Source of the DNA: Oligoflexales bacterium
Lineage (GTDB): Bacteria; Bdellovibrionota_B; Oligoflexia; Oligoflexales; CAIYRB01
Length of the DNA stretch: 64,000 nt
Reading direction: 5' to 3'
Assembly: GCA_041736175.1 (NCBI GenBank)
Contig: JBGSUI010000240.1
Span: 1-64,000, forward strand
Shown here: piece by piece, positions 39 to 44,447 of the stretch
How the letters are laid out: each line of letters starts with the position of its first letter
How positions within the stretch are numbered: the first letter of the stretch is position 1
Program-made: the position numbers and the translations under genes
Notes under the pieces: generated by a model
The model's input: the letters and a program-made list of their open reading frames with translations, nothing else
Told to the model about the DNA's origin: nothing
Databases searched by the model: none

Positions 39-578
39 CTAGGCTGAGCATGTTACCTGCGTTGGTTTTTGAGAAGTTACAAAAAATGGGTGGGTCAATT
101 TACTTGAGCCTAGGTGGGTCAAATTAGTCAAGCGACGTAGCCGGTTTCCATCGGTAAAAGATTTTTGATAAATTTCATTTGTTGGTCTTGTCTTTTCTAT
201 CCATTCCGTCACAGATAGCTCTTGCCTTTGAAATGTAGGATCAAGGACCACTGGCTCGTCAGTCTCGCCTCTTATCACGGTTGCAACATGATACTGCCAT
301 CCAATGCTCGGAAATGGGGCAAAAGACCCAAAGATAAAAATTTGATTAGAGGGAATTTTCTCTAAAGCAAGCTCTATAGCGAGGTAAAACGCTCGTGTTT
401 CACATCCTGCCAACTTAAAATCGTAGGGAAGGTAGTCAATCTTACTCAAAACGGCGAGTGCTGTACCTAATTGGTTATCATTCCCCTGAATAGTCGAGCT
501 ACCGAGTGAATGATTACCCGAACCACAAGCGCAGAGCATCCCGTAATAAATTAGTAAATAAACACTAAGACGTTTCAT
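39..578 (-). CDS. Protein-glutamine glutaminase (deamidase)-like lipoprotein
   Basis: Lipobox-like LCAC. The motifs GCETRA, WQYHVA and VLDP give the Cys-His-Asp triad in the order of the protein-glutaminase family. Confidence 0.7.
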   Translation of the reverse strand: MKRLSVYLLIYYGMLCACGSGNHSLGSSTIQGNDNQLGTALAVLSKIDYLPYDFKLAGCETRAFYLAIELALEKIPSNQIFIFGSFAPFPSIGWQYHVATVIRGETDEPVVLDPTFQRQELSVTEWIEKTRPTNEIYQKSFTDGNRLRRLTNLTHLGSSKLTHPFFVTSQKPTQVTCSA

Positions 579-623: not shown

Positions 624-926
624 AAAATCTCTTTGAATGAACATAATATCCTCAACTGTTTAGACTCTTTGCATCGGGAAAAATCGAAAGAGATCTGCTC
701 CAAGCTGTATGTCTAAGCAACGATTTACCAATCTTGATGAAGATTGGATTGGCATAAACGACTTATCAAAACCTGTGCCGTAAAGCAGTATCCTACAAAA
801 GGCTTTAGTTTTTGCCAGATCAAAATGACCAGGTCTATCTGTAAACAATGAACTTAAGGAACTTCACTCCACGATACTGCAAACCAAAGCAGCATGGCTA
901 TCCGTTGATCGAGACCTTTAGACAAC

Positions 927-2783
927 CTACCTGTACACGATCTCCACCCTAAAATCCACTGCCCTTGCCTTGGCCCTCATCCCGAATTTGCCAGGCCACC
1001 GCCGCTTGGCCGTAGTCAGGCTGATGCCCAGAGCCTCCGCTACGCCCCTTCGGGTAAGGCGGCCGTCAGCGAGCCTTTCTCTGATCTCGATGTCAGAGAG
1101 CTTGATTAGATCCTGACCGGATGCACCTTCCTTGCCAGAACCATCCGGCACGATCACCGCGTGGGTTGCCACCAGTTGCAGGGCTTCCCGGAGGCTCCTA
1201 TGGCGTTCTCCACGGTCACCGCTATCGCCCTCGTCACCAAGAGCAGCGGTTAGAGCCGCCCGTATCATAGCAATCGTGAGGTGAGAGGCGTCCGCGGGTT
1301 TTGACCTGAGCCTGGCCCCTGTGGCCACAGCGTCGGCTTTTGCCAGCTGCTCCTCCAAATCTGAGATGACACTTAGGTTTTTGTCTCGCACCCGCAGGTA
1401 GGTGTCATCGGCGAGGAGACCCGCGGCCCATTTTTCAGTTACCTTAGTTAAGAGATCGCGTTTTTTTTCCAAGGAGTCTCGAGCTGCCTCTGCCGCTAGT
1501 GAGGCCTGCTGGGCTTCGGCTTCGGCCGCATCGCCATTTTTAAGCCTTGCGATCACCGCATCTATTAAGGAATCGTTGGCTGAAAGGGTTGAAATTTCCC
1601 GAGCTGCAAGCCTCTCTACATCCTCCACACGAAAAGTCCGGTGACTCGGCTGCTCGGAGCAAACGTAAACGGGATGAGTCCGTCCGTGCCCCCTCGTCAC
1701 CATGCGGCCTTTACATTCTGAACACTGTAGAAGCCCGTGAAGCCACCTTTTGTGATCCCGAGGTCTTCGTTTAGAGGTGATGCGGTCGTGGTAGTCTTGG
1801 TACCTAACGCGGGCCTTTTCAAAAAGCTCCTCGTCAACGATTCGCGGCACCTCGATCACTTTAGTCGTAAGCGAGATATTGTACCTGGCCTGGGGCTTGA
1901 AGCTCACGATAAGCCGCCCTGCGTAGATCTCGTTTCGGAGGATCGCCAAGACATGGTAGCGATTCCACGGACCGGGTTTTGCCGACGGGGTCACCGCTAC
2001 CCACGGCGAGCGGTCCACTCCAGCGGAGTTTAGTTGGTCAGCGATGTCGTAAACAGAAAGGGGTCTATTGCCATAGACATTGGAGAGAGTTTGGGCACCC
2101 GCGCCGCAGTAAAGCCTGAAAATGTCACTCACGACTTGGGCCTCTTTTTCGACCACGAAATAGCGCCAAGGGTTTTCTTTTTTGCCGGTCTTCTCGAACC
2201 GATATCCAAAGGGCACGTTGGTGAGCCGCCACTGGTCTTGGTTGACAAGTTTTTGAATCCGACCCGACTGGAGCATCCTCGAGTTTTCAAGTTTAGCGAT
2301 GGCCCCTAGTTCTTGGATGACTGCGGAGGCGATCCGGCCTGACGTGTCTGTGACACGGTAGACCACATCTTCGCTTTGGCTGATAAGGCGGACACTGAGG
2401 TGACGGAAAACGTCGGTGATTTCTCCGCGAAGTTCGGCACTCTCGCCCCGAAAAATCCGGTCGCTTGCGGCGACGATGATGGTATTGACCTGCTTGGCCT
2501 TGACCAGTTCGATCAGTTTCCAGAATTCTCGGTCCGAGTCTTTGGCCTCGAGGTTATAGCCCTCGTCTTTAAACACGTCCACGAGGCGCGCGGATTCATG
2601 AGTCCCGAACAGTCGTTCGTAACGTTCCTTAGTGACCGCAAGCTGGCGTTCGATCGTATCCTCTTTTGCTTGTTTATTCGTCGAGACCCGGGCGTAAATG
2701 GCAACCAGAGGGGTTTTGCCAGCTCCACCTTCGTAGACTGGTTCCTTAAGTTCCTTGAGTCGACTTTTTTTAAGGTTGGCCAT
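927..2783 (-). CDS. Large serine recombinase B, with an extra C-terminal HTH
   Basis: Catalytic YARVST, SDRIFR, recombinase-domain PFGY and ILRNEIYAG, Zn-ribbon CSEC, coiled coil, and HTH-like RRGVAEALGISLTTAKRRW. Confidence 0.95.
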   Translation of the reverse strand: MANLKKSRLKELKEPVYEGGAGKTPLVAIYARVSTNKQAKEDTIERQLAVTKERYERLFGTHESARLVDVFKDEGYNLEAKDSDREFWKLIELVKAKQVNTIIVAASDRIFRGESAELRGEITDVFRHLSVRLISQSEDVVYRVTDTSGRIASAVIQELGAIAKLENSRMLQSGRIQKLVNQDQWRLTNVPFGYRFEKTGKKENPWRYFVVEKEAQVVSDIFRLYCGAGAQTLSNVYGNRPLSVYDIADQLNSAGVDRSPWVAVTPSAKPGPWNRYHVLAILRNEIYAGRLIVSFKPQARYNISLTTKVIEVPRIVDEELFEKARVRYQDYHDRITSKRRPRDHKRWLHGLLQCSECKGRMVTRGHGRTHPVYVCSEQPSHRTFRVEDVERLAAREISTLSANDSLIDAVIARLKNGDAAEAEAQQASLAAEAARDSLEKKRDLLTKVTEKWAAGLLADDTYLRVRDKNLSVISDLEEQLAKADAVATGARLRSKPADASHLTIAMIRAALTAALGDEGDSGDRGERHRSLREALQLVATHAVIVPDGSGKEGASGQDLIKLSDIEIRERLADGRLTRRGVAEALGISLTTAKRRWPGKFGMRAKARAVDFRVEIVYR

Positions 2784-4527
2784 GGTAGGCCTCCCCTAAC
2801 ACGGCCAACGGTTCGGATTTGGTCAAATGCACCCTGTAAACCGGCTTTTTATTGGTCCCGTTGGTCTCCTTGAAATCCTTGGACTCGTTGCCCTGTTGCT
2901 TGTTGACGATGACCAGGAGTTTGGCTGCAGCAAAAACCACCCTTATGGATCTCCCCCCCCGTTCCATATCTTCGGTCAACTCTATGATGGCTTTTTCGAT
3001 AGCCTCCTTTGGCCTTAAGATCTCCAGTGCGGAGTTTGCGAGTCCTCTTTTGGAATGGAGCTTTGCATCTCGTTCCGCTAATGCGACTTCAACTTTTAAG
3101 GACTCCATCGACCTTTCGTATTCCTCCTGACTCACTTCATCCAGCGCGTATCTTTCGGTGAGTCGGTCGATGAGGGTGTGAAGCTCCGCAAGTTTGGTCT
3201 TGCCCGATTGTTTGGGGGTCTTTTTAAAATCAGCATTGATCTTGTCCAACGCTCGATCTTTGAGAGCCCCTTTGAATGCGTCGTTAAAGGTGAGCGATTT
3301 GACCAGATCGCCCACGGCTGTCTTAAGAAAGTCGAGCCGCGGCATCACATGGTGCTTTCTGCATCCATAATAAGAAGAACCGCGTTTATAATGATTGATC
3401 AACGACAAATGCATACCGCAGTGCCCACAGTGGAGAAAATCGTGAAACCAAACGTCTGCCGGCGTGACCATTGGCGCATCGGAATGATCGGATGCTTCGC
3501 CACGCTCTTTTCTTATTTTTTGCGCGGTCTCGAAGGTCTCCCGATCGATGATCGGAGTCTCGAGACAGACTTGCCGGACCTCTTTGTCTGGAAGTAGATT
3601 GGTGCGACGAAATCTAATGGTCCTGACCCCGGTGTAAAGTTCGCAGCTTAAAATCTTGACCACCGCCTCAGGGGTCCACAGCGGACTGGAATTATGAGCG
3701 GCCTCAGAAATCCATGCCTCTCGACTCACTCCCGCGTCGCGCAGGATGCGGGCGATACGGATATAGCCGATCGGCGTGCCGCCCCCTGGTGGCAAAATTT
3801 TCGGCTTTTTGCCTAAGTAAAGGGCGAACACGTCGCGGATGATGGCGGCTTCCGAGGCCACAACACGGTAAGAAAAATGCTTTTTACTTTTGATCAGGGT
3901 GCGATCCACCCTGATGCCATAAGGGGCGATGGGCTGGTGATACTTTCTGTTTTCCACTTGCAGACGAAACCCCGTCTGCAGAGATTTCACCAACTCGATT
4001 TTGTTGGCGCTGCCGATCTCCTGGGACAGAGAACTCACCAATCTTGATTGGGAATCCGCAAGACTATAGACGACGTCGGACACCGGGGTGACGACCCGCA
4101 CCCCACCTCTGCGCAAAGTATCCAAGATTTTGCCTCGTATCGAAGCTTTTTCTCCCCGAAAAATCCGGTCGTCCGCAGCGATGACGATGGTCGATATCAT
4201 GGATTTTTCCACAAGGCTGAGGATTTTCCAGAAAGCTCTCGTGGCTTCGAAGGTTTCAAGGTTATAGCCCTCGTCCGCGAAAGTGCCGACAACCGTCGCT
4301 CCCTCGGCTACAAGCTTATTCACGATTTTGTCGCAGAGAAACCGCTGCCGGTCGATGTTGTCGTGCTTTGCCTGCTCCTCGGTCGAGACCCTGAGGTAAA
4401 CGGCCACGAGTTCGCGCCTCTTAGGCGGCTCCCTCGTCGCTTCCCGGGATCCATTTTGACTTGGACTTGTCCGAGTTGGCTTTTTTCGATTTTGATTTTT
4501 CGGCTTCACCGGGTCCAACTTCTTCAT
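2770..4527 (-). CDS. Large serine recombinase A
   Basis: YLRVST, DDRIFR, APYG, ILSCELYTG, CGHC and a coiled coil. Overlaps recombinase B by 14 bp. An alternative GTG start at 4407 has a GAGG SD and follows the small ORF's stop. Confidence 0.95.
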   Translation of the reverse strand: MKKLDPVKPKNQNRKKPTRTSPSQNGSREATREPPKRRELVAVYLRVSTEEQAKHDNIDRQRFLCDKIVNKLVAEGATVVGTFADEGYNLETFEATRAFWKILSLVEKSMISTIVIAADDRIFRGEKASIRGKILDTLRRGGVRVVTPVSDVVYSLADSQSRLVSSLSQEIGSANKIELVKSLQTGFRLQVENRKYHQPIAPYGIRVDRTLIKSKKHFSYRVVASEAAIIRDVFALYLGKKPKILPPGGGTPIGYIRIARILRDAGVSREAWISEAAHNSSPLWTPEAVVKILSCELYTGVRTIRFRRTNLLPDKEVRQVCLETPIIDRETFETAQKIRKERGEASDHSDAPMVTPADVWFHDFLHCGHCGMHLSLINHYKRGSSYYGCRKHHVMPRLDFLKTAVGDLVKSLTFNDAFKGALKDRALDKINADFKKTPKQSGKTKLAELHTLIDRLTERYALDEVSQEEYERSMESLKVEVALAERDAKLHSKRGLANSALEILRPKEAIEKAIIELTEDMERGGRSIRVVFAAAKLLVIVNKQQGNESKDFKETNGTNKKPVYRVHLTKSEPLAVLGEAYHGQP

Positions 4528-4729
4528 TGAGGTGCTTCACTAAACTTGATTTCATGAGTTCTGCCGCTACCAGTTCGGCCAAAGCGTCGATCAGTTCGCC
4601 ACTTGCGGCATAATCGCGCCCACCAACGGAAAAGGCCGGCGTCTCGGATCCAGAAAGCTTGAGATGGCGACCCGGGACCTTTTTGGCTGCTTTTTTGGCT
4701 GACTTTTTTGGTGACTGTGAGACTTTCAA
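4421..4729 (-). CDS. Small Lys-rich protein upstream of the recombinases, possible accessory or directionality factor
   Basis: TTG start with GGGGGA SD, first ORF after the sigma-28-type promoter, with an amphipathic helix LIDALAELVAAELMK. Function is inferred from position only. Confidence 0.55.
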   Translation of the reverse strand: MKVSQSPKKSAKKAAKKVPGRHLKLSGSETPAFSVGGRDYAASGELIDALAELVAAELMKSSLVKHLNEEVGPGEAEKSKSKKANSDKSKSKWIPGSDEGAA

Positions 4730-4782
4730 GGTTCCCCCGAAGTGGACCTGACCTAAACATTGCCATGAAGGCTTCAGGGGTT

Positions 4783-4809
4783 TTATCGGCGGGATAGGGG
4801 CTGACTTGA
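4783..4809 (-). promoter_or_regulatory. Sigma-28 (FliA)-type promoter of the small ORF/recombinase operon
   Basis: Minus strand reads TCAAG-N14-GCCGATAA, a perfect FliA -10, 54 bp upstream of the 4729 start. Confidence 0.7.
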
Positions 4810-4903
4810 CTCCTTGGGGGAGAAATTTTCAAATTTTCTTGAAGATACTTTTTTATCACTTTTAAATCCTTTAATTTCAGTCTGTTACAGCGTGTGGACC
4901 AGT

Positions 4904-4930
4904 TTGCCTAACCTGTACGGCGTTAGGCAA
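4904..4930. repeat. Perfect 9-9-9 inverted repeat TTGCCTAAC-ctgtacggc-GTTAGGCAA, candidate att site
   Basis: Seen directly, at the junction between the AT-rich arm and the gene remnant. Confidence 0.65.
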
Positions 4931-5021
4931 CATGCCCCCTGGGCAAGCAGGTCCACCCTTTGCTGGCGCGGTCTTCGATCTTAAAGAATCGGTCCGCTGC
5001 TGGTTGGAGCAAAACCCATGA
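4911..5021 (+). pseudogene. Orphan 3' end of an interrupted gene with a cytochrome c-like MPP...W C-terminus
   Basis: Frame reads TCTALGNMPPGQAGPPFAGAVFDLKESVRCWLEQNP*. Its TGA overlaps the DUF1501 ATG (ATGA). An in-frame TAA at 4872 means the 5' part is missing here. Confidence 0.6.
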
Positions 5022-6385
5022 AGAAACCTCCTAAAAACAATGCAGAAACCAGCTGGCGTATCAGCACACCAAAGCTTGTGGAAGAATGCTCAAGGCGCCA
5101 ACTCATCGAGACAGGGTTTAGCCTTACGGCCTGGACCACCGCAGCCACCCTGTTCGGGTCACAGGCCGTCCGTGGACAAACAGCCTACACACCAAAACGC
5201 AACCTTATTTGGATCAATATGGGTGGGGGATGGGATATCCTCGAAGTCACGGATCCCAAGCCAGCCTCGACCGCCGGGATTGACCTCCTCTATGGCTTCA
5301 ACGAAGCTCGCGACGTGGCCCAATCCACCGACGGGGTCAAAGTCGGTCGGTGGCTCTCCGGCATCGCCGGCCTAGGCCAAGACCTGCTTGTGGTGCGAGG
5401 GCTCGCCATGGGAACCACCTCCCACAATGCTGGGATGGTTTATATGGATACGGGAATCCTAAGCAACGCCGGTCGCGTCAATGCCGCTTCGATTCCTGCG
5501 ATTGTTGCATCAGAGAGCCAAGCCACAATCCCCATCATTCAACTCTCCGGGGGCACCGACCCCCAAATCGACCGTGGTCTCCTGAATCCCGTTTCCGTTG
5601 TGCGGGCGGGCAACCTGGATCTTTACCGCTCGATGTATCCTGCAGAAGCTGACATCACTCGCAAACTCGCGGTCCTCGATTACCTGAAAAATTCGGTGAC
5701 CGATCTTGAAACCAAAGTGGGTAAAAACGACCGTCTCTCCAATCTAGCCGCTGCTGAATCGAAAGTCCGTGGCCAATTCACCACCAATGTTGGGGCTAAA
5801 TTAGCGCTCACCGACGCCGACCGGGCTCTCTTTAGGAACGGAGCCCCGACGGGGATGAACACTGGCTTTCAAGATGCTGTAGCACTTGCCTTAAAATTGA
5901 TTAATAATGACATATGTACCACGATAAACCTAGGCATTGGAGGATTTGACACACACCAAAACCAATCCACACGGCTTCAGCCGATTTTGCAGTCTGTTGA
6001 TTTCGCCATGGCAAGGTTAGTGGCTGGCCTCAAGGCTTCAGGAAAGTTAGATACGACGTTGATTGTGCTCTATTCAGACTTTGGACGGACCCCCCGGGTC
6101 AACGGCTCCAATGGGCGGGACCATTGGCCGACAGGAGGTGCATTGGTGATGGGTGGCAAGATCGATGGGGGACGTGCTGTCGGAGCATCCACAGATGACA
6201 CTTTAAGTGCCGTCAACCTCATCGACACCAACACCGGTGTTGTCACCAACGATCCCGCAACCGGCACCCAACTCAACCCAAGCCATCTTGGTGGCATGGT
6301 CCTGGCACTCACCCTAGGGGATGGCTACAGCCAGTTCCGGCCCTACTTGGCCGCGCTCCCCTGTATGACACGAACGAGGACCTAG
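5018..6385 (+). CDS. DUF1501 family protein, probably Tat-exported
   Basis: Twin-Arg SRRQL, then INMGGGWD, GGFDTH, SDFGRTP and GRDHW motifs. Confidence 0.9.
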   Translation: MKKPPKNNAETSWRISTPKLVEECSRRQLIETGFSLTAWTTAATLFGSQAVRGQTAYTPKRNLIWINMGGGWDILEVTDPKPASTAGIDLLYGFNEARDVAQSTDGVKVGRWLSGIAGLGQDLLVVRGLAMGTTSHNAGMVYMDTGILSNAGRVNAASIPAIVASESQATIPIIQLSGGTDPQIDRGLLNPVSVVRAGNLDLYRSMYPAEADITRKLAVLDYLKNSVTDLETKVGKNDRLSNLAAAESKVRGQFTTNVGAKLALTDADRALFRNGAPTGMNTGFQDAVALALKLINNDICTTINLGIGGFDTHQNQSTRLQPILQSVDFAMARLVAGLKASGKLDTTLIVLYSDFGRTPRVNGSNGRDHWPTGGALVMGGKIDGGRAVGASTDDTLSAVNLIDTNTGVVTNDPATGTQLNPSHLGGMVLALTLGDGYSQFRPYLAALPCMTRTRT

Positions 6386-7596
6386 TGAAGAGTACGCAAG
6401 AGGTTACGAACCTCCTCCATGCCACCCTGGTAGTTTTAAAAATATTATGTTTAGTGATCCTATGCAGCCTGTGGATTCTACCAGACGCGGCTTTAGCCCA
6501 GCTTGGAGAACACACGGCTTTGATGCCCACCGATACCATGGTGCCCCCTGTGGTCATGACCCATCCTGGGGTGATGCCTCCCAAAAGTCGCGCCAACGGT
6601 CACGAAGCCGGTCTGCTTATGACCCGCGACGAACGTACGTCAAAACTAGACCATACCACTGTGGGCGGCGATGATATTAAGTCGGTTGTTTCTGATGAAG
6701 CGGTTCTTGGGGCGGTTCATTTTGACTTAGGTGCAGGAGCCCGGGTCGCCTTGCTCCACGAGCTGGTTTTTCGCAAAACAAAGACCACTTCCAGCGCCAT
6801 CCGTCGAGGAGTCCCCCGTGAGGAGGTCGAGAGGATCCAGATGGACGCGCTTAAAATCACCATCGAGCTTACCGAAGGCCTGACCGCCGGCATGATCCTG
6901 CGCTATGTCTATAGAGACCGTCTCATCTATGGCGATCTTTCCGTTGCTCAGCAAAATCGATATAAAATTTCCATGATCGGCTACGGTGGGGGCGCTGCCT
7001 TAACCCTTAAAAATTTCGGTTTAGGATATGCTTACTATCCACAATTACGGGGGAAAACAGACGTTCTGGGCGAAGAAAAAATTGTGGTCGAACCTGGATT
7101 TCTCAACATCGATGTATCCTACAAACCAAGTGATTCCTTGGCTTTTTCGCTTCTCAACCGGCGCTTTTTGTGGGAACTAGACGATATCGGTCGAGGCACG
7201 ACCAATACCGATACCAACCAGACCCGTATTTCTCTTTACGGACTCGATCCCGACCAATACCTTTTGACCGACACTTTGACGATGCTCGGTGTTTCCTATG
7301 AACTCGGGAAAATAGCAACTCTAAAAGTTGCTTTAGGCCAAGAAAAAGCCCATTTTAATTTTCAAGATTTGTTGGTCTATAATCGCGTCGACGTGCGACA
7401 AAGGACGGGTGACCCGAGAGATCTCACTTACAATCGCGCGAGAGCCCAAATCAGTTGGCTACTTAACAAAGGTCTCGACATATCTTTAGGCATGGGTCTT
7501 TATGAGCGTAAATTTGAATTTCCAACCGCTATGAATGGAGGCACCTACGAGGCCTCAGGTAGAGAACTCATAGCGGCAGCAGGCATCAGTTTTTGA
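6385..7596 (+). CDS. Putative outer-membrane beta-barrel protein
   Basis: Signal peptide, amphipathic beta-strands and terminal Phe (AGISF). Confidence 0.65.
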   Translation: MKSTQEVTNLLHATLVVLKILCLVILCSLWILPDAALAQLGEHTALMPTDTMVPPVVMTHPGVMPPKSRANGHEAGLLMTRDERTSKLDHTTVGGDDIKSVVSDEAVLGAVHFDLGAGARVALLHELVFRKTKTTSSAIRRGVPREEVERIQMDALKITIELTEGLTAGMILRYVYRDRLIYGDLSVAQQNRYKISMIGYGGGAALTLKNFGLGYAYYPQLRGKTDVLGEEKIVVEPGFLNIDVSYKPSDSLAFSLLNRRFLWELDDIGRGTTNTDTNQTRISLYGLDPDQYLLTDTLTMLGVSYELGKIATLKVALGQEKAHFNFQDLLVYNRVDVRQRTGDPRDLTYNRARAQISWLLNKGLDISLGMGLYERKFEFPTAMNGGTYEASGRELIAAAGISF

Positions 7597-7636: not shown

Positions 7637-8242
7637 ATGACACGAATTCTTGTTTTGAACGCGGGGTATGAGCCTCTACAGCTCGTGAGTTGGCAGAGGG
7701 GACTCTGCTTGGTTTTATCCAACAAGGCTGAGGTAGTCGAGCGCTCCCGGGCTGTGGCTCGCTCGGTAAGCTGCACGATAGAACTCCCCTGTGTGGTGCG
7801 GTTAGTTCGCTATGTTCACAATGTCAGCAAGATGGGTATGGTGCGTTGTTCCCGACGAAATATCCTGCTCCGAGATAGGTTCCAGTGCCAATACTGTGGC
7901 ATCAGGTGCAAACCCGCCCATGCGACCGTGGACCATATTGTACCTCGCGTCATGGGGGGAAAAACCACCTGGACGAACGCCGTGGCCGCATGCAATAACT
8001 GCAATCGGAAGAAAGGGTCTCGCAGCCTTGATTCTTCGGGCCTTAAGCTCATGAGAGCACCCAGGCGCCCCACGTGGAACGATCTGTTTGTGGTCCCCAA
8101 GGAAACCCACGGCGAGCTTTTGGCGGGTCCTGGTCTAGGAGTCGACCTGCAACCAGGTACTGTCGATACAAACCACGAGGCACGGGTCCAAAGCGTTCAG
8201 GAGATAGGCTTTAGAGAAGTTTGGCTTAAATATTTGAGTTAG
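7637..8242 (+). CDS. HNH endonuclease
   Basis: LVLNAGYEPL N-terminus, RDRFQCQYCG, TVDHIVP and ACNNCNRKK. Confidence 0.9.
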   Translation: MTRILVLNAGYEPLQLVSWQRGLCLVLSNKAEVVERSRAVARSVSCTIELPCVVRLVRYVHNVSKMGMVRCSRRNILLRDRFQCQYCGIRCKPAHATVDHIVPRVMGGKTTWTNAVAACNNCNRKKGSRSLDSSGLKLMRAPRRPTWNDLFVVPKETHGELLAGPGLGVDLQPGTVDTNHEARVQSVQEIGFREVWLKYLS

Positions 8243-18463: not shown

Positions 18464-18491
18464 TTATCGGTGTTTCTAGCTAAAAACTTGA
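18464..18491 (-). promoter_or_regulatory. Sigma-28-type promoter of the TIGR02147 gene
   Basis: TCAAG-N15-ACCGATAA. Confidence 0.6.
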
Positions 18492-18611: not shown

Positions 18612-18638
18612 TAAAGTTTTCTAATTATAAACCGATAA
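18612..18638 (+). promoter_or_regulatory. Sigma-28-type promoter of the EF-hand gene
   Basis: TAAAGTTT-N11-ACCGATAA, close to the extended FliA consensus. Confidence 0.65.
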
Positions 18639-19373: not shown

Positions 19374-19401
19374 TCAAGTTTAAGACTGAAACTGCCGATA
19401 A
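19374..19401 (+). promoter_or_regulatory. Sigma-28-type promoter
   Basis: TCAAG-N15-GCCGATAA. Confidence 0.65.
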
Positions 19402-23056: not shown

Positions 23057-23083
23057 TAAAGATCTGCCGCGAATATGCCGATA
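23057..23083 (+). promoter_or_regulatory. Sigma-28-type promoter with no long downstream ORF
   Basis: TAAAG-N15-GCCGATA. Confidence 0.55.
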
Positions 23084-23089
23084 CCCCCC

Positions 23090-43559: not shown

Positions 43560-44447
43560 CTACATAAGTAGTTTAGTGATTTCATCATAAGTAGAGCCTT
43601 GACGAACGGCTATAAAGTCATGGGCCACCGTCGGTGTCGAAGGGAGAAATGGCTTAATTTTCATTTTTAATTTTGCCTTCGGAAGACTAAGAAAGTTGTA
43701 ACCATAGCTACCTAGAATAGCAAAGCTAGGATCATTCGATTTGTCAGGTAGGTTAGACTCGAACAATATTACATCAGGCTTGTTGAGTTCGAAGACCTCT
43801 TTGGCGCCTTTAAGCACTTCCGGTTCAAATCCTTCAACATCAATTTTAATTAAACGAATTTTCTGAATGAATTTTCCTCGCCGCATGATATCCGATAAAG
43901 TTTCTACCGGAACGGAGCATGATTCACAATTCTCACCCTGGTAATTCTGGACAAGGGAGGAACGCCCAAAGTGCCCTTGGGGAATATTTAATGTCAACAA
44001 CCCTGGAGATGCACCTAAAGCTATTGGAAACAGCTCGATGTTGTTTATTCCGTTTTTTTCAATCGCTTTTCGTATCAGTGTCTGCATGTACGGTATCGGC
44101 TCAAATGCCAAAACTTTACCCGAGGGTTGAACCAGCTTGGCTAAAATCATACTAATCAAACCAAGATTCGCCCCAATATCAAGGACAAGATCCCCAGGCC
44201 GAACGACTTTAGATATCACCCAAGTGATTTTTCGATCTAGCTCTCCAGAGTAATAAACCGCTCTACCAACATAATCATCCAGAGGTGCCGGGGCAAAATA
44301 ACCACCATGGACTTTGGCCCAAGCTAGCTCTTTACTCTCACCAGCCAACTTTAATACCAGAGCATGGTTAGCAAGGGAACCACTGCCACTGTACAAAGGA
44401 TAGAGTCTCAAAACCTTTGACATAACAATTTGTCTAAAAGTGGGCAT
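43560..44447 (-). CDS. FkbM family methyltransferase
   Basis: LDIGANLG, AFEP and KIDVEGFE. Confidence 0.92.
   Translation of the reverse strand: MPTFRQIVMSKVLRLYPLYSGSGSLANHALVLKLAGESKELAWAKVHGGYFAPAPLDDYVGRAVYYSGELDRKITWVISKVVRPGDLVLDIGANLGLISMILAKLVQPSGKVLAFEPIPYMQTLIRKAIEKNGINNIELFPIALGASPGLLTLNIPQGHFGRSSLVQNYQGENCESCSVPVETLSDIMRRGKFIQKIRLIKIDVEGFEPEVLKGAKEVFELNKPDVILFESNLPDKSNDPSFAILGSYGYNFLSLPKAKLKMKIKPFLPSTPTVAHDFIAVRQGSTYDEITKLLM

Follow-up and report, generated by a model that had tools for sequence, protein, structure and literature searches.

A candidate sigma-28-type promoter in front of tandem serine recombinase genes in an integrated element of a Bdellovibrionota genome

Introduction

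Programmed excision of DNA that is timed by sigma factors is documented for elements of spore formers, such as SPbeta and skin, and is also found in cyanobacterial heterocysts. The expression of ccrAB in SCCmec is reportedly SigB-dependent (Zhang, Shu and Sun 2016), and control of serine-recombinase excision by alternative sigma factors is already known for both SPbeta and SCCmec. SPbeta encodes the recombinase SprA and a small factor, SprB, whose mother-cell sporulation promoter has a -10 box of the sigma-E/K type, and excision of SPbeta rebuilds the gene spsM (PMC4191935). Skin-type elements are developmentally excised gene-intervening elements that carry large serine recombinases (PMC5025042).

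The consensus of sigma-28 promoters in E. coli is TAAAGTTT-n11-GCCGATAA (PMC2859248). In Bdellovibrio bacteriovorus, the motif TTAAG-N16-CCGATA was reported at 92 of the 140 attack-phase promoters that had been mapped; a role as global regulator of the attack phase in this species has been proposed for FliA (PMC3627812). Among the matches listed in literature searches on FliA combined with integrase, mobile genetic element or excision, no title or abstract opening described a FliA promoter in front of the recombinase genes of a mobile element.

Here we describe a sigma-28-type promoter motif on contig C45 of a draft genome (G000; 6.08 Mb in 264 contigs) from the Bdellovibrionota. The stretch of DNA analysed, the window, comprises the first 64 kb of this contig. 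A first-pass annotation had described the motif as a host-type sigma-28 promoter inside a mobile element, aimed at recombinase genes, which would tie mobility to the motile state. The features are listed in Table 1, with positions in the window unless another contig or locus is named.

Table 1. Positions of the features discussed in the text
Feature	Position	Strand	Remarks
Sigma-28-type promoter motif	4783..4809	(-)	-35 octamer TCAAGTCA 4802-4809, 11-nt spacer, -10 octamer GCCGATAA 4783-4790
AT-rich stretch upstream of -35 box	4810..4875	(-)	possibly UP-element-like
orf102	4421..4729	(-)	TTG start, 102 residues, lysine-rich, first gene downstream of motif
rec1	2770..4407	(-)	large serine recombinase, 545 residues, GTG 4407; Resolvase and Recombinase domains
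rec2	927..2783	(-)	large serine recombinase, 618 residues; Resolvase and Recombinase domains
Element cargo gene	39..578	(-)	179-residue protein, Gln_deamidase_2 domain
attR, right junction	4894..4956		arms 4894-4908 (element side) and 4942-4956 (host side); core GGCAA 4926-4930
Detached last 31 codons (stop included) of DUF1800-type gene	4929..5021	(+)	stop overlaps DUF1501 start (ATGA)
DUF1501 host gene	5018..6385	(+)	DUF1501 134 bits; downstream partner in interrupted operon; orthologues, conserved synteny
Stronger matrix sites, window	19374-19401, 23057-23084, 44093-44118, 18464-18491, 18612-18638	(+), (+), (-), (-), (+)	
Host-operon box, this genome	C259:39742-39768		
Host-operon boxes, orthologous	L017:7050-7076, L018:5614-5640, L019 ~6895-6925, L020 ~768-796	(-), (+), (-), (+)	
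Flagellin genes without canonical GCCGATAA-type promoter	C171:31263, C158:11508, C158:12421, C165:1698, C175:15296, C52:31487, C78:43624		

Results

An element is integrated in the 3' end of a DUF1800-type gene

The presence of a mobile element, assumed in the first-pass annotation, was established by synteny with four relatives (G001, G003, G007, G008) and by the anatomy of the attachment sites. In all four relatives, an uninterrupted DUF1800-type gene is located directly upstream of the DUF1501 gene, with overlapping stop and start codons. The best match to this gene in the genome studied here is on another contig (C259:40508-42205), and this copy ends with the residues VSMMASGN, followed by 19 foreign residues. 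The detached end, which encodes NMPPGQAGPP...CWLEQNP and a stop codon, is located on C45 and aligns with the C-termini of the intact genes in the four relatives; the breakpoint falls directly after a conserved Gly-Asn (MMASGN/MPPGQ). To the right of the element, DUF1501 and the genes for a 403-residue protein, an HNH protein and an HAD protein are syntenic in the same four genomes. In G001 and G003, the stand-alone HNH endonuclease gene (7637-8242) has kept its place beside the DUF1501 cluster, at about 60% identity.

The inverted arms of attR are 15 nt long, 87% complementary and centred on the breakpoint, and the 5-bp core is common to attR and attL (C259:42143-42147). The P' arm (C259:42162-42177) mirrors the element-side P arm at 11 of 14 positions, as judged by eye. 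Attachment sites of serine integrases are expected to have this anatomy. C259:42148-44305 and C45:1-4925, which are the parts of the element known so far, amount to at least 7.1 kb, and the size is given only as a minimum because both contigs end in multi-copy repeats. The assembly breaks at C45 in a repeat (bases 1-140) that is found with 98.6-100% identity on four other contigs. This repeat corresponds to the common C-terminus of a gene family that resembles the gene for the 179-residue cargo protein. The end of C259, roughly its final 140 bases (44165-44305), recurs at no fewer than 15 contig ends and begins like a truncated NYN-type gene.

The base composition and G+C content of the element did not differ from those of the flanks, and no contig with an empty site was found in the assembly. 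Searches of viral contigs yielded merely generic serine recombinases with 24-28% identity, and thus no evidence for the element being a phage.

The motif belongs to a promoter class of the host

The motif is located within the element, at a distance of about 120 bp from attR, and is directed towards the interior. As had been noted, it is an exact match to TCAAG-N14-GCCGATAA, which was found once in the window and in none of 100 dinucleotide shuffles; the octamer GCCGATAA was counted 8 times in the window, as compared to 1.52 times expected, a number reached in 0 of 100 shuffles. Compared to the E. coli consensus, the candidate is identical in the -10 box (8/8) and in the length of the spacer (11 nt), and it agrees at five of eight positions in the -35 box. 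Genome-wide, the loose pattern T[AC]AA[GA]-N13-16-GCCGATA occurred 69 times, as compared to about 12 occurrences expected from base frequencies by our arithmetic. Spacers of 11 and 12 nt were used by 26 and 36, respectively, of the 62 seed sites.

A two-block matrix was trained on 58 non-redundant host sites, with the candidate excluded from the training set. The unconstrained columns of the matrix recovered the expected biases, cTAAAGTTT and GCCGATA(A/G). The candidate scored 17.7 bits, with 5.9 bits from the -35 part and 11.8 bits from the -10 part. At this score or higher, 158 hits were obtained in the genome, the 58 training sites included, whereas the reversed sequence gave 7 hits and the three order-3 Markov simulations gave 16, 24 and 21. 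According to a crude ORF-based gene model (5147 genes; 88.5% of the genome coding and 11.5% non-coding), 100 of these hits were in non-coding DNA and 46 wholly within called coding DNA. A same-strand gene start was located at -60 to +300 nt for 106 of the 158 hits, and the distance from the -10 box to the start peaked at 25-75 nt. The candidate is typical in position, orientation and distance, with about 53 nt between its -10 box and the start of orf102; its classification as coding by the crude gene model arose because a spurious 111-codon frame (4524-4859) overlies it. The excess of genome hits over the controls, taken together with the typical positions, shows that the motif class is real in this host, in line with the earlier description of the motif as host-type, and that the candidate is a low-scoring member of it. 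Chromosomal genes of the window are likewise preceded by the motif, as had been claimed: five stronger matrix sites were found there, and the genes downstream of window sites include DUF4423, EF-hand and patatin-like genes. In total, about 2-3% of the host genes carry a site.

The form TCAAG is the second commonest -35 sequence of the host, with 15 occurrences in the 100 non-coding sites. The -35 sub-score of the candidate is at the 10th percentile (10 of the 100 sites are as low), and its spacer contains 27% A+T, a value that is equally low in just 2 of the 100 sites. The 58 nt upstream of the candidate contain 71% A+T, which is typical given a median of 67% at the non-coding sites of the host. 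Transcription is predicted to start near 4774-4776. No sigma-70-like site was identified on either strand in 4300-5100 with a simple consensus scan, which misses weak or non-canonical promoters, and no match to Rfam was obtained within the same interval.

A second site, with a score of 25.0 bits, was identified in the left part of the element (C259:43984-44011), which gives two sites per approximately 7.1 kb as compared to about 0.18 expected at the genome average (our arithmetic). This site is directly followed by TTGACA-17-TATACT and then by a 10-bp GC-rich terminator hairpin with a U run. The region C259:43984-44125 (locus L075:1985-2126) contains a candidate small RNA of about 100 nt, the fold of which has a z-score of -3.6, with 0 of 200 shuffles being as stable. 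No sequence in the C259 part of the element, the small RNA candidate included, scored above the Rfam gathering score, and no Rfam family was assigned.

The motif faces a predicted operon of orf102 and two large serine recombinases

The motif had been described as a promoter of the recombinase genes. It does point toward them, and the first gene downstream is the conserved orf102. This gene was also called by public gene callers (P0005). A relative of 98 residues (P0006) has 89% identity and differs by an in-frame indel close to the N-terminus. No match to orf102 was found among Pfam or NCBIfam families or among metagenome contigs. The orf102 product is a candidate accessory factor of the recombinases; a prediction of the complex of orf102 with rec1 (score 0.05, mark 0.32) counts neither way. 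A frame starting from ATG 4764, about 18 nt after the -10 box, was rejected as the first gene; its product is rich in Arg and Trp and has no relatives.

The rec1 protein of 545 residues corresponds to P0001, with the start at GTG 4407 as called by others. Between the orf102 stop and this start are 13 nt, which include AAGAGG. In a longer rec1 model, from ATG 4527, the gene overlaps with the 3' part of orf102. The overlapping stretch has 3 changes in the last 35 residues in the orf102 frame (P0006) as compared to 9 changes in 40 residues in the rec1 frame (P0002), two relatives of 89-91% identity that stem from different records. Conservation upstream of 4407 is stronger in the frame of orf102 than in that of rec1, so that the longer model is less likely and GTG 4407 is probably the start of rec1.

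The two recombinases are 32% identical to each other, and the last 14 nt of rec1 are shared with the start of rec2. Both contain the resolvase domain PF00239 (33.0 and 41.2 bits; cut-off 23.3) and the Recombinase domain PF07508 (38.0 and 41.6 bits; cut-off 21.1), and the RVST motif is present in the translations as YLRVSTEEQ and YARVSTNKQ. The matches to the zinc ribbon were below the cut-off (19.5 and 23.7 versus 25.3 bits), with the invariant Cys and His columns present. The nearest solved relative of rec2 by sequence is SprA/YokA of SPbeta, a weak match (E 6e-6), and no solved relative of rec1 was identified by sequence. No terminator-like hairpin was detected on the minus strand between orf102, rec1 and rec2, and the three genes would form one operon with a single transcript.

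Motif sites of the host stand in front of diverse non-flagellar genes

The host has a single FliA, encoded on contig C125 (287.5 bits; cut-off 189.6), and it also encodes FlgM. A second FliA-like sigma factor as reader of the motif was ruled out, the second hit being RpoD.

The proposed tie to the motile state was not borne out. The flagellin genes and flgM do not carry the motif, and the strongest sites precede genes for toxin-antitoxin systems, proteases, a chemoreceptor and proteins without a known function. None of the nine flagellin-domain genes had a site above 11.9 bits in the 300 nt upstream, where the 95th and 99th percentiles of the best scores in random 300-nt windows are 8.9 and 13.6 bits. 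Upstream of flgM (C78:67952-68119), no hit reached 13 bits. The canonical promoter is absent at the flagellin genes and flgM although the genome holds more than 100 such sites and one FliA. It is therefore by its likeness to the promoters of E. coli and B. bacteriovorus that the motif is assigned to FliA. A link to motility is too narrow for these data, and "FliA-active phase" is the safer wording.

We surveyed the genes downstream of the 40 best non-coding sites that are followed by a gene; once duplicates had been dropped, 34 genes were searched against Pfam, with 15 matches. These were two Gp49/HigB-like toxins, RelE, an Xre-type antitoxin, DUF4160, an HTH_3 protein, Peptidase_M78, an HTH_17 protein, three trypsin-like proteases, a chemoreceptor, a sigma-54 activator, an MMPL transporter and a patatin-like protein. 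Strong sites in front of toxin-antitoxin-type genes are located, for example, at C194:61531-61558, C200:656-683, C200:4385-4411, C223:2545-2571, C45:111422-111449 and C135:4396-4423. Duplicated sites were observed on the contig pairs C7/C164, C200/C211, C41/C194 and C155/C179. A site on C254 in front of an HTH_17 gene was considered as a second case in a mobile element and was dismissed, as the neighbouring genes DnaK and LpxC give no support. By analogy, the motif regulon of the host would match the broad FliA-type attack-phase regulon of B. bacteriovorus, and the FliA programme in this phylum is probably a broad one of the non-growing or attack type that extends beyond flagellum assembly.

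The interrupted host operon has a sigma-28-like box

The host operon consists of genes for a 253-residue protein, DUF1800 and DUF1501. About 20 nt before its first gene is a sigma-28-like box, the position of which is conserved in five genomes of the family. The box reads T(A/C)AAG(T/A)(A/T)T, followed after 11-12 nt by a weaker -10 sequence, (G/C)CCGAA or GGCGAA. The scores were 12.6 bits in the genome studied here, 10.6 in G001, 12.2 in G008 and below 10 in G007 and G003. The conserved position suggests that the split host operon may belong to the same sigma-28-type regulon. The known element genes on C45 all run opposite to DUF1501, and the insertion should therefore cut DUF1501 off from the promoter of the host operon.

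The promoter is not a trait of the recombinase family

No close homolog of rec1 was found in 40 related genomes, six of which gave weak small-resolvase hits only, and no close relative was found among the genome contigs that were searched with the single rec1 protein as query. Two family searches of the genome studied here identified 21 recombinase hits, of which 17 were examined after four fragments or broken copies had been dropped. Among these 17, only rec1 has a same-strand site of at least 12 bits within 1.5 kb upstream; no such site was found for the 15 genes other than rec1 and rec2. The named relatives of the recombinases come only from B. bacteriovorus and a Bdellovibrionaceae genome.

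Likewise, six of seven related recombinase loci, including that of B. bacteriovorus, had no upstream site that reached 12 bits (two of the seven, L035 and L037, are identical in sequence). The exception is L036, a distant relative, where the site TCAAGTCG-n11-ACCGATAG, with a score of 17.2 bits, is followed by a 55-codon ORF and then by the recombinase. With this single positive locus, the promoter is not a trait of the recombinase family.

Small ORFs overlap or abut the starts of related recombinases (L034:912-1055, L036:1192-1359, L038:884-1024, L035:2467-2640). By eye, these ORFs share an acidic amphipathic helix, for example FDEQFYAELAAILL and FPDQFYRELVELL, and no significant BLASTP similarity to orf102 was found for them. 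In the Bdellovibrionaceae genome, a sequence that resembles tRNA-Ser by eye is located just upstream of the related recombinase (L040:1090-1190), a hint that the element there targets a tRNA gene.

Discussion

We consider it fairly probable that the motif is a rather weak sigma-28-type promoter of the three-gene operon orf102-rec1-rec2. That the site fires, and that it is read by FliA, we infer from its sequence and surroundings. In the mechanism that we propose, an integrative element has entered a host gene of the DUF1800 type at its 3' end; the insertion separates DUF1501 from that gene and should also separate it from the conserved promoter of that gene. Transcription would start near 4775 from a FliA-class promoter within the element, about 120 bp from the right junction, and the transcript would cover orf102 and then the two tandem large serine recombinases, with their coupled or overlapping starts. 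The recombination genes would accordingly be transcribed while the single FliA-type sigma factor of the host is active, and mobility of the element may be confined to a single phase of the host's life.

Several other explanations have to be weighed. The site could be read by sigma-28 RNA polymerase and yet contribute little, if the operon were transcribed mainly from an unrecognised promoter or were nearly silent, as are many integrase genes. The weak -35 box and the GC-rich spacer would fit with such a minor role, as would the lack of conservation of the motif across the recombinase family. On the other hand, a simple consensus scan, albeit one that overlooks weak or non-canonical promoters, identified no sigma-70-like site in 4300-5100, and we regard this explanation as unlikely. 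We find it very unlikely that the match arose by chance and has no promoter activity. The controls yield 7-24 hits per genome at 17.7 bits, and the candidate has an unusual spacer and a score close to the lower limit of those accepted, but for a 290-nt gap on one strand only about 2e-4 to 6e-4 hits are expected by our arithmetic. Moreover, with a site at 2-3% of the host genes, the position, the orientation and the distance to orf102 are those of a typical site, and a second site is located within the same element on C259.

The promoter might also serve orf102 alone, with the recombinases transcribed separately. The start of orf102 is at the modal distance from the site, with the first recombinase about 375 nt downstream, as would be expected if this were the case. 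However, there is no terminator-like hairpin on the minus strand between orf102 and rec1, only the 13-nt gap with AAGAGG separates the two genes, and rec1 and rec2 overlap by 14 nt, so that we judge a promoter for orf102 only to be highly improbable. If the site were inactive, the integrated element would be an ordinary one, and its promoter-like box would be weak or fortuitous.

Returning to the reading of the motif as an operon promoter, a working site would mean that the phase-specific sigma factor of a Bdellovibrio-like host has been adopted by an integrative element to time the expression of its recombinases. A further step would be a stage-timed gene-intervening element, in which active FliA leads to an excision that rejoins the DUF1800-DUF1501 operon, in the manner of SPbeta and skin under sporulation sigma factors. 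The basis for this idea is that the interrupted operon and the orf102-rec1-rec2 operon have putative promoters of the same class; it is argued by analogy, and we hold it to be quite unlikely. If true, FliA-timed excision would be the first developmental DNA rearrangement to be tied to sigma-28 and to this phylum, and a sigma-28-timed case in the Bdellovibrionota would carry the principle to a different kind of life cycle.

Compared to known sigma-28 promoters, the candidate shares with the FliA promoters of E. coli an identical -10 octamer, the spacer length and a related -35 box (PMC2859248). The occurrence of the motif in front of many non-flagellar genes, including proteases, a chemoreceptor, regulators and genes without a known function, is similar to the situation described for B. 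bacteriovorus (PMC3627812). Unlike known sigma-28 promoters, the candidate precedes the recombinase operon of a mobile element rather than a host gene, matches only five of eight positions in the -35 box and has a GC-rich spacer.

The similarity to SPbeta and skin consists of a serine-recombinase element inside a host coding sequence, a small gene beside the recombinase and a putative promoter of an alternative-sigma type in front, and the putative promoter of the same class at the interrupted host operon is a further parallel. In contrast to SPbeta and skin, the host is a member of the Bdellovibrionota without sporulation, and there are two tandem recombinases; unlike in SPbeta, the small gene orf102 is located in the predicted recombinase operon rather than being controlled separately. 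Like SCCmec, the element carries a tandem pair of serine recombinase genes at its end, has a conserved host gene as its target, which it enters at the 3' end, and is under putative control by an alternative sigma factor. It differs from SCCmec in that the target is a DUF1800-type gene, not rlmH (orfX), in that the last 30 residues of the host protein are replaced, and in the class of the sigma factor. By analogy, the logic of the locus would be the same as in SPbeta and SCCmec. Four features would set it apart: its class of sigma factor, its phylum, the tandem arrangement of the recombinases and a small gene that belongs to the same operon.
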